Assembly (NCBI GenBank): GCA_042584585.1
Contig: JBHOSQ010000008.1
Span: 1-50,521 of the forward strand
From: an archaeon
GTDB lineage: Archaea; B1Sed10-29; WALL01
Length of the DNA stretch: 50,521 nt
Direction: 5' to 3'
Positions 1-45,522 of the stretch are shown piece by piece; positions within the stretch are counted from its first letter, which is position 1, and the number at the start of each line of letters is the position of its first letter. Made by a program: the position numbers and the translations under genes. A model generated the notes under the pieces. It was not told the origin of the DNA. It ran no database searches and saw only the letters and a list, made by a program, of their open reading frames with translations.

Positions 1-53
1 CGACGTTGACCCAAGTCAACGTCCAGTCCCGACGTGCCGCCTGAGTTTCAGGC
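1..53 (+). repeat. Modular palindromic element copy E1 (cut by window start): hairpin2 + ACGTGCC + hairpin3
   Basis: nt 1-38 identical to 44534-44571; GACGTTGAC-CCAA-GTCAACGTC and GCCTGA-GTT-TCAGGC stems. Confidence 0.9.
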
Positions 54-107
54 GAATTCCGCCAAGGAGTACTAACCTTTTTTTAATCCAAGTGAGTGGT
101 GTTAGCC

Positions 108-2679: not shown

Positions 2680-2753
2680 GGGCTCGTAGTCTAGCTTGGA
2701 TATGACTCAACCCTCCGGAGGTTGGAGCCCGGGTTCAAATCCCGGCGGGCCCG
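2680..2753 (+). tRNA. tRNA-Arg(CCG)
   Basis: GGGCTCG/CGGGCCC acceptor; CAACC-CTCCGGA-GGTTG anticodon arm. Confidence 0.92.
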
Positions 2754-2757
2754 TTCT

Positions 2758-2815
2758 GCCTATCGCTGGGCCTTGTGCCCCGCCTTAGTCTACCGCGCCA
2801 GCTGAGGTTTCGGCT
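2758..2815 (+). repeat. Modular palindromic element E2 (tRNA-Arg trailer)
   Basis: GCCTAT..GGGCCTTGTGCCC..TTAGTCTACCGCGCC-AGCTGAGGTTTCGGCT; aligns with 44248-44335 and 44504-44590. Confidence 0.8.
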
Positions 2816-2839
2816 GAAACCCGGCGGGCTAGTTGAGGC

Positions 2840-2918
2840 AGAGACGGGAATGAGCCCGTCTCTGGGGGTGCCAATTTGCACCCCTCAAGCCTAACGTGCC
2901 AGCTTAGTTCAAGCTGCT
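2840..2918 (+). repeat. Modular palindromic element E3
   Basis: AGAGACGGG/CCCGTCTCT hairpin, GGGGTGC/GCACCCC hairpin, AAGCCTAACGTGCC-AGCTTAGTTCAAGCT; closely parallels 10425-10483. Confidence 0.88.
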
Positions 2919-4074: not shown

Positions 4075-4184
4075 GCCGGCCTAGCTCAGTTGGTTAGAGC
4101 GCCAGACTCATAGGGAATTAATCCTCTGGGTTTTCTTCCGGAGACATCTGGAAGTCGTGGGTTCAAGTCCCATGGCCGGCACCA
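4075..4184 (+). tRNA. tRNA-Met(CAT), elongator type, 33-nt intron at 37/38 (4113-4145), encoded CCA
   Basis: GCCGGCC/GGCCGGC acceptor; CCAGA-CTCATA[intron]A-TCTGG. Confidence 0.92.
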
Positions 4185-9742: not shown

Positions 9743-9778
9743 ATTTATATTAGGTAATATAGAATAGAGGCGCAGACC

Positions 9779-9831
9779 GGCGTTGGCCAAAGCCGACGTC
9801 TGGCAAACCGACACTGACCCAAGTCAGTGTC
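9779..9831 (+). repeat. Two tandem hairpin2-type modules (E4) in the tRNA-Pro leader
   Basis: GGCGTTGGC-CAAA-GCCGACGTC and GACACTGAC-CCAA-GTCAGTGTC, both variants of GACGTTGAC-CCAA-GTCAACGTC. Confidence 0.85.
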
Positions 9832-9913: not shown

Positions 9914-9965
9914 CTCAATTCACTGCTGCCTTTTTAAAAAGAAGTGGATAAAAGAATCAAAGCAT

Positions 9966-10077
9966 CCCCGCTTAGCATAGCCCGGTAATGCGGCCGGCTG
10001 TAGATGGATTTGGAGGCAGGGCCTTCGTACCAGCCGCCACCGGCAGATCCCCCGTTCAAATCGGGGAGCGGGGACCA
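9966..10077 (+). tRNA. tRNA-Tyr(GTA), 35-nt intron at 37/38 (10004-10038), encoded CCA
   Basis: C1-G72 acceptor CCCCGCT/AGCGGGG; GCCGG-CTGTAG[intron]A-CCGGC. Confidence 0.92.
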
Positions 10078-10220: not shown

Positions 10221-10418
10221 ATGAAACGGTTCAGGTCAAAAGGCGGTTTTTTCTTGATGTTGACTGGGGCAGTCGCGCTGTTGAGCGGGTCGCAGCTGTT
10301 GATTGGCAACTTGATTCAAGTGGAAGATATGCTGCAGGCGTTTGGCGGACTCTTTGTGTTCATGTTCGGCGTGATGCTGTTTTACTACGGGAGCATTCTT
10401 CTCGGTGGAGAAGAATAA
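10221..10418 (+). CDS. Small 2-TM membrane protein
   Basis: AGGAG RBS, ATG 10221, two hydrophobic segments. Confidence 0.7.
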   Translation: MKRFRSKGGFFLMLTGAVALLSGSQLLIGNLIQVEDMLQAFGGLFVFMFGVMLFYYGSILLGGEE

Positions 10419-10523
10419 CAATTTGTCTCTGGGGGATGCCAACTGGCATCCCCCAAGCCTAACGTGCCAGCTGAGTTTCAGCTGTTTTATTACGGGAGCA
10501 TTCTTCTCGGTGGAGAAGATAAC
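10376..10523 (+). mobile_element. Palindromic element E5 (10425-10483) flanked by 44/43-bp direct repeats (10376-10419, 10481-10523)
   Basis: GCTGTTTTAYTACGGGAGCATTCTTCTCGGTGGAGAAGA(A)TAAC on both sides of GTCTCT-GGGGGATGCCA/TGGCATCCCCC-AAGCCTAACGTGCC-AGCTGAGTTTCAGCT; mobility is inferred. Confidence 0.7.
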
Positions 10524-14458: not shown

Positions 14459-18534
<4,076 letters not shown>

Positions 18535-23854: not shown

Positions 23855-23917
23855 GCCCTCGTTTTCTGCAAGGTTTTTAAGGCATAGTGCGAACAATAGG
23901 TGTCGCTGGAACATTAG

Positions 23918-24004
23918 GTCTCTGGGAATCGCAGATTCCCTGTGGCCCGACGTTGACCCCAAGTCAACGTCCAGACGCAACGTGCCAGCTTAGTTTAAGC
24001 TGCT
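23918..24004 (+). repeat. Modular palindromic element E6, abutting tRNA-Ser 5' end
   Basis: GTCTCT-GGGAATC/GATTCCC-GACGTTGAC/GTCAACGTC-AACGTGCC-AGCTTAGTTTAAGCT-GCT. Confidence 0.9.
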
Positions 24005-43642: not shown

Positions 43643-44238
43643 CAGAGCATTATTACTCAAAGAAGCAGACCAGCAAATTGGTCAAGCGCGAGTGGGCTGT
43701 TGAAGTCAACGGCCGGCGCCTCGTGTTCGAAACGGCGAGCGGCACGTTTTCCCCTCGGAAGCTGGACATCGGGACCGCAGCGATGATTAAGTACATGGCG
43801 CCTCCAGAGGACGGAAAAGTTTTGGACCTTGGGTGCGGCAACGGAGTGATTGGAATAGTGGTGGCTGCCGAAAACCCGCGTCTGGAAGTGGTTTTGAGCG
43901 ACGTGAATTCCCGCGCGGTGATGAAGAGCAAGGCTAACATCCGGCGGAACAAGCTCAAGAACGCGAAAGTGGTCCAGAGCGACTTGTTCGCAAAGCTCAC
44001 TGGCGGGTTTGACTGTATACTGTCGAATCCCCCGATCTCGGCCGGGAGGAAAGTGGTGTTTGCGATGGTCGAGGAAAGCTTTGGCCATCTCAATCTCGGT
44101 GGCTCTTTGCAGATGGTGGCGCGGAAGACGAAGGGCGGCGAAATGCTGGCGAAAGAGATGGAGCGCGTTTTCGGGAACGTGGAGGACATTGGCCGCAAAT
44201 CAGGGTTTCATGTTTATAAATCAGTAAAGGCAGAATAG
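43639..44238 (+). CDS. Class I SAM-dependent methyltransferase (MTS/RsmC-like)
   Basis: HYYS, GTFS..LDIGT, LDLGCGNG, SNPP. Confidence 0.9.
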   Translation: MTEHYYSKKQTSKLVKREWAVEVNGRRLVFETASGTFSPRKLDIGTAAMIKYMAPPEDGKVLDLGCGNGVIGIVVAAENPRLEVVLSDVNSRAVMKSKANIRRNKLKNAKVVQSDLFAKLTGGFDCILSNPPISAGRKVVFAMVEESFGHLNLGGSLQMVARKTKGGEMLAKEMERVFGNVEDIGRKSGFHVYKSVKAE

Positions 44239-44247
44239 GCGCGGCAT

Positions 44248-44335
44248 GCCTATTTGCGGGAGCTCGGCTCCCGCTTTAGTCTAACGTGCCATAACGTGAA
44301 TCCCGCAGGATTCTCGTTTGAGCTGAGTTTCAGCT
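44248..44335 (+). repeat. Modular palindromic element E7, abutting tRNA-Ser 5' end
   Basis: GCCTAT-GCGGGAGC/GCTCCCGC-TTAGTCTAACGTGCC-[AACGTGAATCC/GGATTCTCGTT]-AGCTGAGTTTCAGCT. Confidence 0.88.
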
Positions 44336-44419
44336 GCTGGGGTGGCGCAATCCGGTACCGCGCAAGCCTGGAAAGCTTGTTTCCTTCGGGATATGTGAGT
44401 TCAAATCTCACCCCCAGCG
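44336..44419 (+). tRNA. tRNA-Ser(GGA)
   Basis: GCTGGGG/CCCCAGC acceptor, G73; CAAGC-CTGGAAA-GCTTG; variable arm. Confidence 0.95.
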
Positions 44420-44503
44420 CTCAACCCTTTTTCTGCTAGAGCCACACTCGTTTGCCCACTCGGTGGCTCATCGGCGGAAAAGCGTTGATGGAAAATGGCG
44501 TCT

Positions 44504-44590
44504 GTCTCTGGGGGCCTTGTGCCCCCCGTTGCCCGACGTTGACCCAAGTCAACGTCCAGTCCCGACGTGCCAGCTTAGTTCAAGCTGCTG
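44504..44590 (+). repeat. Modular palindromic element E8 (full three-hairpin copy)
   Basis: GTCTCT-GGGGGC/GCCCCC-GACGTTGAC/GTCAACGTC-CAGTCCCGACGTGCC-AGCTTAGTTCAAGCT-GCTG. Confidence 0.92.
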
Positions 44591-44661
44591 TTCACTCCTG
44601 TTCATGCGTGTACTATGAGTCCTTTATATACCGTTCATAACGCAGTTATTCATAAGGTGAT

Positions 44662-45522
44662 ATGCTCATGAACAAAATTTTGCTCATGCTCGTGCTGGGG
44701 ATGTTTGTCGTCTCCCTCGCGGGCACAGGAATGGCTGTGAAGCCAGAAACACTGGGGGATGACGCCGTTGACGCGGCCGACGCAGTAGACGGCCTCAACA
44801 CATCGTTGAGGGGAAAACCCGAAAAAGCAGGCAACGGCAAGCCTGAGACCAACGACACCACGGTCAGGGGAAAGCCCGAGACCAACGACACCACTGTCAA
44901 AGGAAAGCCCGAGACCAATAAGACATTGAGGCTTAATCAAGGCAGGCTCATTTCGACTGTCACTAAAGTGAGGCAGGAACAGTTCAGGCTGACAAAGGAG
45001 AACCTGAAAGTGATTGGGTACAAGGGAAGCATGTCCGACTTTGCTACCTCATACAACGTCGCGATGAACCGGCTCAAGACACGCATCCGCGAGAGGATGC
45101 AGGACGAGTCCAACTTCACTCGAGCAGTCGTGAGGAACCTCATGGAGAGGGAGCTCGCGCAGATTCGCGAGAGGCTGATGGTAAACAGGACCGTGACCGA
45201 CGAAGAAGTCGTTGGCGGAATCGGTGTGCTGGCCTCGAACGAGACCATAAACCCCGAGGAAACAGATGCGCCAACCCCCGAGGAAGTCCAGGAAGCGGTG
45301 GAAGAAGAGCTTGAGTACATGGACGAAGACTTCAAGGAAAAGCTCGTGCTCGTGGCAGAAGTCGGCACCCCCGAAGAGCAGGAAGAGCTCGCCGAGCAGC
45401 TTGAGGACTTCACTGAAGCCCAGGACGAAGAAGTAGAGCCAATCGAGTTCGACGCTGAGGAAGTGCGGGAAGGCCTTGAGGAAGAGGAAGGCCCGTACGA
45501 CGGCGTTGAAGAACAGGAATAA
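44662..45522 (+). CDS. Secreted protein with GKPETNDTTV repeats and acidic C-terminus
   Basis: Signal peptide; 33-nt tandem units at 44836-44919; several N-x-T/S sequons; AGGTGA RBS and TTTATATA box. Confidence 0.8.
   Translation: MLMNKILLMLVLGMFVVSLAGTGMAVKPETLGDDAVDAADAVDGLNTSLRGKPEKAGNGKPETNDTTVRGKPETNDTTVKGKPETNKTLRLNQGRLISTVTKVRQEQFRLTKENLKVIGYKGSMSDFATSYNVAMNRLKTRIRERMQDESNFTRAVVRNLMERELAQIRERLMVNRTVTDEEVVGGIGVLASNETINPEETDAPTPEEVQEAVEEELEYMDEDFKEKLVLVAEVGTPEEQEELAEQLEDFTEAQDEEVEPIEFDAEEVREGLEEEEGPYDGVEEQE

Follow-up and report, generated by a model that had tools for sequence, protein, structure and literature searches.

The window analysed here is the whole of contig C8 (JBHOSQ010000008.1 of assembly GCA_042584585.1; 50,521 nt, or 50.5 kb), one of the 32 contigs of a 1.02-Mb archaeal genome with about 55% G+C and a completeness of 84%. 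This genome carries a family of short palindromic elements, referred to below as the hairpin family, which is mobile DNA, since the same orthologous site may hold an element in one species and none in the next. The family is a non-coding mosaic of hairpin modules, about 55-150 nt in length, and is confined to one genus. Its copies are inserted as units with defined ends, and the accompanying target duplication is long and variable in extent; the 3′ end of the element forms the fixed junction, while modules nest and are exchanged. It is very probable that the family represents a non-autonomous mobile element with long, variable target duplications, which upholds the proposal, made in a preliminary description of the window, of a selfish repeat family with covarying, nested hairpin modules that is enriched in tRNA flanks. 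The host is a DPANN archaeon, as judged from its elongation factor 2, which has 87% identity to that of a Candidatus Iainarchaeum archaeon.

Copies were identified with a covariance model, R1, which was trained on 17 copies of the hairpin family and run against the three genomes of the genus and 38 further archaeal genomes (3 other genera of the same taxonomic family, 7 of the order, 18 of the class and 10 other archaea). R1 finds 36 copies in the host genome at E < 1e-4 (43 at E <= 1), 6 and 55 copies in the two other genomes of the genus, either of which is called a congener below, and none in the 38 others, the 3 other genera of the family included. The exact degenerate pattern of the 3′ module has no match among viral contigs and occurs on seven short metagenome contigs that are 72-87% identical to the host genome and evidently derive from a third related species. 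As the genomes of the genus are metagenome bins (84-89% complete) and repeats break assemblies, the copy numbers are minima and enzymes missing from the bins are not proven absent; nor are the kin genomes used in the comparisons independent of each other.

Filled and empty sites and target duplications

An 84.7-kb contig of a congener is collinear with the whole window. At positions 17097-17110, where two genes overlap by ATGAATAA, the window is empty, and the congener carries an element of about 83 nt on the minus strand within a 21-24-nt duplication that preserves both the stop codon of the upstream gene and the start codon of the downstream gene. Another stop/start overlap, empty in the host genome at C4:42073-42086, is occupied in the congener by an element, again with a duplication of 21-24 nt. 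Longer target segments are duplicated at two further sites that are empty in the host genome. At C5:57774-57822 the congener has duplicated a gene start of about 52 nt and carries the unit of element plus duplication twice in tandem, and at C4:86075-86155 it carries an element with about 90 nt of a gene 3′ end duplicated, stop codon included. At C4:11768-11780, also empty, the matches to the two flanks overlap over the last 13 nt of tRNA-Trp, and this overlap, as read from the aligned flanks, indicates a target duplication.

Filled sites beside tRNA genes in the window also vary between the species. The copy at 44248-44335 is missing in one congener, where the leader of tRNA-Ser(GGA) is 28 nt long, and is represented in the third species by a plain type A element without an insert and with identical flanks. 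The copy at 44503-44587 is missing, together with its 5′ extension, in the third species and is present in a congener, followed there by a decayed duplicate of the tRNA 3′ end. At the site of the copy at 23917-24004, the third species has a type A element that differs in hairpin 1 and lacks hairpin 2, and a congener has at tRNA-Ser(CGA) a reversed composite element within an 18-nt duplication of the tRNA 5′ end. Extra copies are found in a congener behind tRNA-Pro(CGG), tRNA-Asp, tRNA-Thr(GGT) and tRNA-Met, where the window has none.

The duplications can be recognised within single genomes as well. Flanking repeats in the host genome were scored by aligning the 70 nt on one side of each element locally with the 70 nt on the other, and the best scores were compared with those of 500 random sites; 5 of 35 copies reach at least the 99th percentile of the random sites and 12 of 35 at least the 95th. 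With flanks of 110 nt and 600 random sites, the numbers for the congeners are 12 of 55 at the 99th and 27 of 55 at the 95th percentile. The direct repeats measure 10-90 nt, with lengths that vary from copy to copy, and at many copies they restore the end of a tRNA, a stop codon or a stop/start overlap. Around the copy at 10424-10484, the flank repeat scores 36.5, as compared to a maximum of 12 over the 500 random sites. Its upstream copy (10380-10419, plus strand), part of a duplication of about 40 nt, contains the genuine 3′ end of a gene for a small membrane protein, with its stop codon, and its downstream copy (10485-10523, plus strand) is a decayed version of this gene end.

The position of the repeats defines the ends of the inserted unit. 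In most cases the downstream repeat starts at, or a few nucleotides from, the base after hairpin 3 and its following G, with offsets mostly between -6 and +5 around the model match (three flanking columns included) and larger ones in a few cases. The upstream repeat adjoins the head of the element, with 0-6 unaligned nucleotides, in about half of the clear cases, and both junctions are exact in four filled/empty pairs. Units of element plus duplication also form tandem arrays. The base preceding the duplication is A in 13 of 21 cases, according to a by-eye reading in which the tRNA T-loop cases are non-independent, and the duplication alignments reveal no evident microhomology at the 3′ junctions.

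Accessory genes also differ between the species exactly at element positions. An element together with a 259-aa open reading frame (ORF) is inserted behind a stop codon on a metagenome contig (L105:465-1192, compared with C1:49217-49225); this ORF belongs to no Pfam family and is without relatives in the genus. A small gene at C10:4426-5051 has one or two elements in its place in relatives (L104 and a congener). Between tRNA-Pro(CGG) and tRNA-Tyr, a congener carries a free-standing gene for a 215-aa LAGLIDADG-type homing endonuclease (L052:3669-4316), of which window positions 9914-9966 are the empty counterpart. A further difference of about 90 nt at a gene 3′ end, between C4:65092-65183 of the congener and window 45508-45519, was rejected as an element copy, being an in-frame, glutamate-rich low-complexity expansion.

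Modules, paired arms and copies in the window

The constant part of an element is its 3′ module, which consists of the linker (A/G)ACGTGCC or a variant, ACCGCGCC, followed by a 6-7-bp hairpin (hairpin 3) and a G. In some versions ACGTGCC is followed by AGCT, GCCT or GGCT and then by KA-GTT; in others ACCGCGCC or ACCTCGCC is followed by AGCTSAGGTTTSGGCT. The heads that precede the 3′ module are TGYCTCT, TGCCGCC, TGCCTATTT and TAGTCCG, each with a G-rich, nearly perfect palindrome, and the head types read as sequence stretches TGYCTCTGGG.., TGCCGCCGGG.., TGCCTATTTGCGG.. and TAGTCCGCTGG... The GCCTAT head of the preliminary description does exist, as one of at least four head types rather than as one of the two given there. 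Hairpin 2 (GACGTTGAC-CCAA-GTCAACGTC) is found in either orientation and is placed between or within other modules. The linker may be followed by inserted hairpins of the AATCC/GGATT type, about 30 nt long, sometimes several of them and nested, and 5′ extensions are optional. The several heads and 3′ modules, the nested inserts and the optional extensions bear out the interchangeable modules described earlier.

The simple motif of ACGYGCC plus the start of hairpin 3 occurs 29 times in the host genome, 15 times on the plus strand and 14 times on the minus strand, so that the exclusive plus orientation noted earlier holds for this contig and is not a property of the genome. No 5′-truncated copies were seen, a head being present in all 29 motif copies; three short R1 matches correspond to a contig edge or to copies with other head types. 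A search for a long master element, by self-BLAST of the host genome, gave element-bearing repeats of 31-113 nt only. Hairpin 2, or a variant of it, also stands alone 7-10 nt upstream of three tRNA genes (at C11:13160, C14:306 and window 9810); in the host genome the solitary form precedes tRNA-Ala(GGC) and tRNA-Gln(TTG) at this distance. It may be an independent mini-element or a leader signal.

Hairpin 3 covaries as had been proposed. Four compensated forms are present in the raw sequence (AGCTGA/TCAGCT, AGCTTA/TAAGCT, GCCTGA/TCAGGC and GCCTTA/TAAGGC). Covariation was tested on 84 distinct copies from the three genomes, aligned to the model, and such a model-fitted alignment favours the structure. 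Standard pairs fill 94.8% of the cells, as compared to 79.1% in shuffles, and double changes number 136, as compared to 37.3 in shuffles, and are seen at 9 of 12 pairs. The observed covariation score was reached by none of 500 shuffles, and pairing falls to 35-51% when the partner is slid by 1-3 columns. Folding as DNA gave z values of -3.0 to -5.9 relative to shuffles for six window sequences, namely five elements and the reverse complement of one of these. The element at 10424-10484, the sole one tested on both strands, has z values of -5.7 on the plus and -5.5 on the minus strand. Pairs in the hairpin-1 region comprise 690 Watson-Crick and 9 G-T combinations, and in hairpin 3 the 15 G-T wobbles are balanced by 13 A-C mismatches, with both strands folding equally in the one element. 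The near absence of wobble pairs fits DNA better than a long-conserved RNA.

All R1 matches in the window are on the plus strand, at 32-54, 2757-2819, 2853-2919, 10420-10487, 23979-24002, 44247-44301 and 44499-44590, with a weak additional match at 44321-44335 (E 0.15). The eight copies of the preliminary description are located where it placed them, as checked in the sequence, and seven of the eight are matched by R1. The remaining one, a two-hairpin insertion in the 5′ leader of tRNA-Pro(CGG) (9779-9831, plus strand), is unmatched and has a single module in common with the family, the hairpin-2 variant GACACTGAC-CCAA-GTCAGTGTC; it is an insertion relative to a congener, whose leader of this tRNA is about 10 nt long.

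The cleanest copy is the type A copy at 10424-10484 (plus strand; R1 E 4.5e-18), in which TGTCTCT, a perfect 11-bp hairpin 1, AAGCCTAACGTGCC, AGCTGA-GTT-TCAGCT and a G follow each other in the typical order. A partial copy at 1-54 (plus strand; R1 match 32-54) is truncated by the contig start and retains hairpin 2, a GACGTGCC linker and hairpin 3 (GCCTGA/TCAGGC). Window positions 1-37 are identical to the end of contig C2 (C2:121771-121807), which lies inside one element and 70 nt downstream of tRNA-Glu(CTC). C2 and the window are probably neighbours that the assembly separated in the repeat, and the 37-nt identity implies that the copy at 1-54 probably follows tRNA-Glu(CTC). The copy at 2757-2816 (plus strand; R1 2757-2819, E 4.5e-9; also recognised by its fold) combines a TGCCTAT head with a divergent 3′ module of CTACCGCGCC and AGCTGAGGTTTCGGCT. 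It lies within a 13-nt duplication (12 of 13 identical), the upstream copy of which is the tRNA-Arg(CCG) 3′ end, AATCCCGGCGGGC (2738-2750, plus strand), and the downstream copy of which, AAACCCGGCGGGC (2817-2829, plus strand), adjoins the element 3′ end. A type A copy follows at 2857-2916 (plus strand; R1 2853-2919, E 9.8e-17; also recognised by its fold), with a CGTCTCTGGGGG head, ACGTGCC and an AGCTTA hairpin 3; an extra hairpin at 2840-2863 overlaps its head.

The remaining copies are associated with the two serine tRNAs. In the 5′ leader of tRNA-Ser(CGA), the copy at 23917-24004 (plus strand), which R1 matches on the 3′ module, has hairpin 2 between hairpin 1 and the linker and stops 0-3 nt short of the mature tRNA 5′ end. 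The 5′ leader of tRNA-Ser(GGA) contains the R1-matched copy at 44247-44335 (plus strand), with a type B head and an extra hairpin of 30 nt (44293-44322) after ACGTGCC; this insert, pointed out earlier, is real, and the same module recurs, nested, in a congener. Downstream of tRNA-Ser(GGA) lies the type A copy at 44503-44587 (plus strand; R1 match 44499-44590), into which hairpin 2 is inserted. It follows a 5′ extension module at 44461-44502 (plus strand; ..CTCGGTGG..GGAAAAGCGTTGATGGAAAA..), which precedes some copies and is also found before elements at other loci in relatives.

Genomic distribution and setting of the copies

All 36 copies in the host genome are intergenic, where crude longest-ORF gene calls, which underlie the location statistics, leave 8.8% of the genome intergenic. 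The clustering around tRNA genes described for the window extends to the whole genome, as 13 of the 36 copies lie at most 100 nt from one of 45 tRNA genes, compared with 5.9% of intergenic bases (binomial P about 7e-8 on these gene calls); without contig C6 the proportion is 13 of 23. The window itself has 13 tRNA genes, every one on the plus strand. A comparison of copy orientation with transcription, also called for earlier, gave a divided result, with 20 copies co-oriented and 15 anti-oriented to their upstream neighbour.

Several copies certainly lie inside pre-tRNA transcription units. A TATA box stands 25-35 nt upstream of three of the tRNA-leader copies, and other copies are located in tRNA trailers, upstream of the T-run. 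The tRNA promoters at window 9743-9775 and 44213-44240 and at about C14 position 330 consist of a TATA box followed after 10-14 nt by AGAATAG, a probable initiator region. In many protein genes a TATA box precedes the ATG by 22-24 nt, and this spacing suggests leaderless mRNAs. Two tRNA genes in the window, tRNA-Met(CAT) at 4075-4184 and tRNA-Tyr(GTA) at 9966-10077, bear introns; the default tRNA scan misses both and an intron search finds both, and tRNA-Met(CAT) is also detected by Rfam. The conserved halves of tRNA-Tyr(GTA) are 100% identical between species and are separated by 36 nt in the window and by 85 nt in a congener, so its intron appears to differ in length, and perhaps in position, between the two.

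Contig C6, with 50.3% G+C as compared to about 55% for the genome, carries 14 of the 36 R1 copies. Ten co-oriented motif copies on this contig are spaced at 0.2-4.1 kb, mostly 1-3 kb, and several C6 copies lie between divergent promoters of the form AAAAGG-N-TTTTTAT with the ATG 22-24 nt farther on, an arrangement that would place them upstream of both transcription starts. The segment C6:4000-27000 is a low-GC island composed mostly of genes without known function, and it also encodes a combined Fic/DOC and helix-turn-helix protein, DUF6498, a PD-(D/E)XK nuclease and a 960-aa Eco57I/MmeI-like restriction-modification enzyme. Nine proteins of the element-rich part and the part to its right have no NCBIfam match. 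Horizontal acquisition and a role in defence are probable for this island. The element array of a congener comprises genes unrelated to those of the C6 island.

Mechanism, alternatives and comparison with known systems

In the mechanism proposed here, a putative trans-acting enzyme would recognise the folded 3′ module, probably as single-stranded DNA, and join the element to target cuts staggered by 10-90 nt, and gap repair or fill-in would then produce the duplication. A long duplication would recreate the gene end, tRNA end or stop/start overlap lying between the cuts. Because gene borders would be recreated, insertions near them would be neutral and others, in a genome that is about 91% coding, would be lost, and survival near gene and tRNA borders only could thereby account for much of the tRNA clustering. 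The covariation of the hairpins would reflect a need for foldable arms in active copies, and after insertion the copies may exchange head modules, through gene conversion or re-insertion, and receive nested mini-hairpins. The statement as a whole, that these are genus-restricted mobile hairpin elements integrated at the DNA level through staggered cuts by a putative trans-acting enzyme, is favoured with modest confidence. It is conceivable, albeit doubtful, that the elements use a new archaeal transposition chemistry, namely the polar, 3′-anchored insertion of a tiny hairpin element lacking inverted ends into a target opened over 10-90 nt. Such a chemistry could involve target-primed copying of an intermediate, either RNA or single-stranded DNA, or else a nuclease or integrase of a new family. 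If true, each insertion would carry its own "repair patch" for the gene or tRNA that it strikes.

Several results weigh against integration by staggered cuts as the full account. No enzyme was found among the Pfam families searched against six-frame translations (rve, IS110, IS91, serine recombinase and PrimPol were not searched); the reverse transcriptase family RVT_1 (PF00078) has no match in any of the three genomes of the genus, and the IS4-type transposase family DDE_Tnp_1 (PF01609) has none above the cut-off in the same three, other DDE families not being included in the search. About half of all copies are without a recognisable duplication. Clear cases other than those with an adjoining head, mostly behind tRNAs, have 14-98 nt of further modules before the head, and the 60-nt core is therefore not the inserted unit in every case. 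At two orthologous sites the species have entirely different versions of head and hairpin 1, for which a second process is needed. The different insertions at tRNA-Ser(CGA) in three species suggest some true tRNA targeting and not selection alone. Finally, given that wobbles are balanced by A-C mismatches and that the strand energies are equal, neither the folding strand nor the choice between RNA and DNA is decided by the pairing.

Among the partners suggested in the preliminary description, RVT_1 is thus without a match in the three genomes, and the host genome yields neither Phage_integrase (PF00589), with 1 and 2 matches in the congeners, nor Y1_Tnp (PF01797). The latter was searched in the host genome only, where two candidates were scored and neither passed E <= 0.01; as a control, the family was matched in 6 of 14 reference genomes. 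One congener encodes a 389-aa, Xer-like tyrosine recombinase, to which the closest copies are about 5 kb distant. An XerA-type tyrosine recombinase is present in 14 of 14 control genomes and in both congeners and was not found in the host genome, likely because of the 16% that is missing from it. Cas1 has no match in the three genomes. The TnpB zinc-ribbon has four matches above the cut-off, all in the 55-copy congener and on contigs or at positions without copies. Two weak TnpB matches in the host genome were rejected, one being antisense in an 875-aa gene with immunoglobulin (Ig) domains and the other a 283-aa ORF without a Pfam family. The proteins of the C6 island (Fic/DOC, DUF6498, PD-(D/E)XK nuclease, Eco57I-like methylase-nuclease, transporters and surface proteins) were considered as transposases, and none is a candidate.

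The lack of RVT_1 matches in the three genomes weighs against a retroposition of the type known from short interspersed nuclear elements (SINEs), in which transcripts of pre-tRNA leaders or trailers would be copied into nicked DNA by a reverse transcriptase that recognises the 3′ stem-loop, and a variable second nick would lead to a variable duplication. This route would explain the long, variable target duplications and the exact 3′ junction, the constant 3′ tail combined with interchangeable heads, the copies within pre-tRNA transcription units such as the three behind TATA boxes and, subject to the same by-eye reading and non-independence, the A before the duplication. It is nonetheless improbable, as the elements have no A-rich or simple-repeat tail, every one of the 29 motif copies retains its head, both orientations occur, some copies lie upstream of both neighbouring promoters and the hairpins are nearly devoid of G-U pairs. 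If the elements were RNA-mediated, they would be the first SINE-like retroposon of a prokaryote.

The failure to find a transposase family in the searches, together with the variable length of the duplication, is also compatible with an enzyme-free copy-in, whereby a polymerase switches template to an existing element and back during repair or replication restart and leaves a tandem duplication with the element as templated filler. The few unalignable bases at some 5′ junctions and the head modules swapped between orthologous copies point in the same direction. However, units inserted at unrelated targets have identical, exact ends, the 3′ junctions lack evident microhomology, and the copy number is high in one genus only, which makes a copy-in of this kind a quite unlikely origin.

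The arrangement on contig C6 recalls an integron-like cassette system, with the elements as folded att sites where genes come and go. The ten co-oriented copies in the low-GC island, the unrelated gene content of the array in a congener and the gene-plus-element or gene-versus-element differences between species would accord with such a system, and 53 of 81 copies contain an RYYYAAC box like the integron R'' core. Integrons exist in archaeal metagenome-assembled genomes (MAGs; bioRxiv 10.1101/2022.02.06.479319). The exact complement GTTRRRY was found in 0 of 81 copies, searched within the element and 150 nt downstream, so the defining R''/R' bulged hairpin is missing. With no integrase found in the host genome, genes in mixed orientation between the elements, and 10-90-nt duplications of many unrelated targets that site-specific recombination leaves unexplained, a cassette system is very improbable.

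A functional structured RNA or cis signal of pre-tRNAs or mRNAs, acting as a processing, stabilising or termination module, was the other possibility raised in the preliminary description and is disfavoured by the comparisons between species. Covarying pairs, enrichment in tRNA flanks, the three window copies in transcribed tRNA leaders and those in trailers upstream of the T-run are what such a module would predict. Its restriction to one genus, however, is not, and orthologous tRNAs in sister species are without the element or have another version of it, including exchanged heads. Copies are found in both orientations and between divergent promoters, both strands of the one element tested fold equally, and G-U pairs are nearly absent. 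A check for a known Rfam family gave tRNAs only for the whole window at the gathering score, and at E up to 1 the regions 44230-44610 and 2740-2940 gave chance-level matches only, 30-90 bits below the cut-offs. A role as a functional RNA is accordingly judged very unlikely. Mobilisation as repetitive extragenic palindromes (REPs) or bacterial interspersed mosaic elements (BIMEs) by a REP-associated tyrosine transposase (RAYT; Y1 HUH), is an analogy drawn earlier, and the extragenic GC-rich palindrome mosaic with its interchangeable linkers and nested units would fit it. It is scarcely credible because, of 81 distinct full-length copies, 0 have GTAG within their first 8 nt, no Y1/HUH enzyme was found in the host genome, long target duplications are present and REPs in inverted pairs are lacking.

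The genomes of DPANN archaea are tiny and densely coded and are generally considered poor in mobile elements. In the genus studied here, a single hairpin family supplies dozens of insertions; it interrupts assemblies, reshapes leaders and trailers at many tRNA genes and delimits variable gene islands. The family provides a compact set of young insertions for studying the origin of long target duplications, as well as a practical marker for typing strains and species within the genus. It is undescribed in the literature consulted on archaeal MITEs (miniature inverted-repeat transposable elements), integrons, variable direct repeats and Iainarchaeum/Diapherotrites, the supplementary MITE and attC-MAG lists of which might include the genus.

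The closest likeness in target duplication is to the insertion sequences (ISs) IS1549 and IS1634, which have direct repeats of 8-514 bp, for which no mechanistic model exists, and the IS1634 family is reported to be diverse in archaea (PMC2266710). These are the only documented prokaryotic elements with such repeats and offer a partial precedent for the long, variable direct repeats of the hairpin family, although they are autonomous, 1.5-2 kb in length and equipped with terminal inverted repeats and a DDE transposase, in contrast to elements of 55-150 nt. By definition, MITEs possess terminal inverted repeats with a minimum of 10-15 bp, and their duplications measure 2-10 bp (PMC11602168). 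Like them, the hairpin family is short, non-coding, multi-copy, intergenic and dependent on a trans factor. Between its terminal 14 nt, with the 5′ end compared to the reverse-complemented 3′ end, identities average 3.5 and peak at 7 across 81 copies, which equals the random expectation. With neither inverted termini nor a short duplication of fixed length, its own being 10-90 nt rather than 2-10 bp, a classical MITE is ruled out.

REP and BIME sequences are small extragenic GC-rich palindromes that are arranged in mosaics, number tens of copies and are lineage-specific, and a REP has a 5′ GTAG tetranucleotide beside an imperfect palindrome. They are not known to make long target duplications. 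The hairpin family matches them as a lineage-specific, extragenic GC-rich palindrome mosaic with tens of copies and differs in its lack of a GTAG head and a RAYT, its long duplications and its single units rather than inverted pairs. IS200/IS605 elements rely on a Y1 TnpA and/or TnpB partner and insert without target duplication; a derivation from them was rejected, since Y1_Tnp is not found in the host genome, TnpB occurs only in one congener and away from copies, and duplications are present. With attC sites and clusters of attC sites lacking integron integrases (CALINs), the family shares folded hairpins, an RYYYAAC-like box and an array between small genes without known function in one island, whereas an R' box is absent, no integrase was found in the host genome, gene orientation is mixed and targets are duplicated.

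Eukaryotic SINEs with a 3′ stem-loop derived from long interspersed nuclear elements (LINEs) have a constant 3′ tail, variable heads, target duplications of variable length and an exact 3′ junction. These four features recur in the hairpin family, which differs in its archaeal host, in having no tail repeat and in the lack of a reverse transcriptase match in the three genomes. Taken together, the comparisons indicate that the hairpin family fails a tested defining feature of each of the REP/BIME, MITE, IS1634-like, SINE-type and attC classes, and its signature of defined ends without inverted repeats, long gene-preserving duplications and no known transposase matches no described prokaryotic repeat class. 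In architecture it resembles BIMEs, in its insertion signature IS1634/IS1549 or retroposons, and in size and dependence on a trans factor MITEs.

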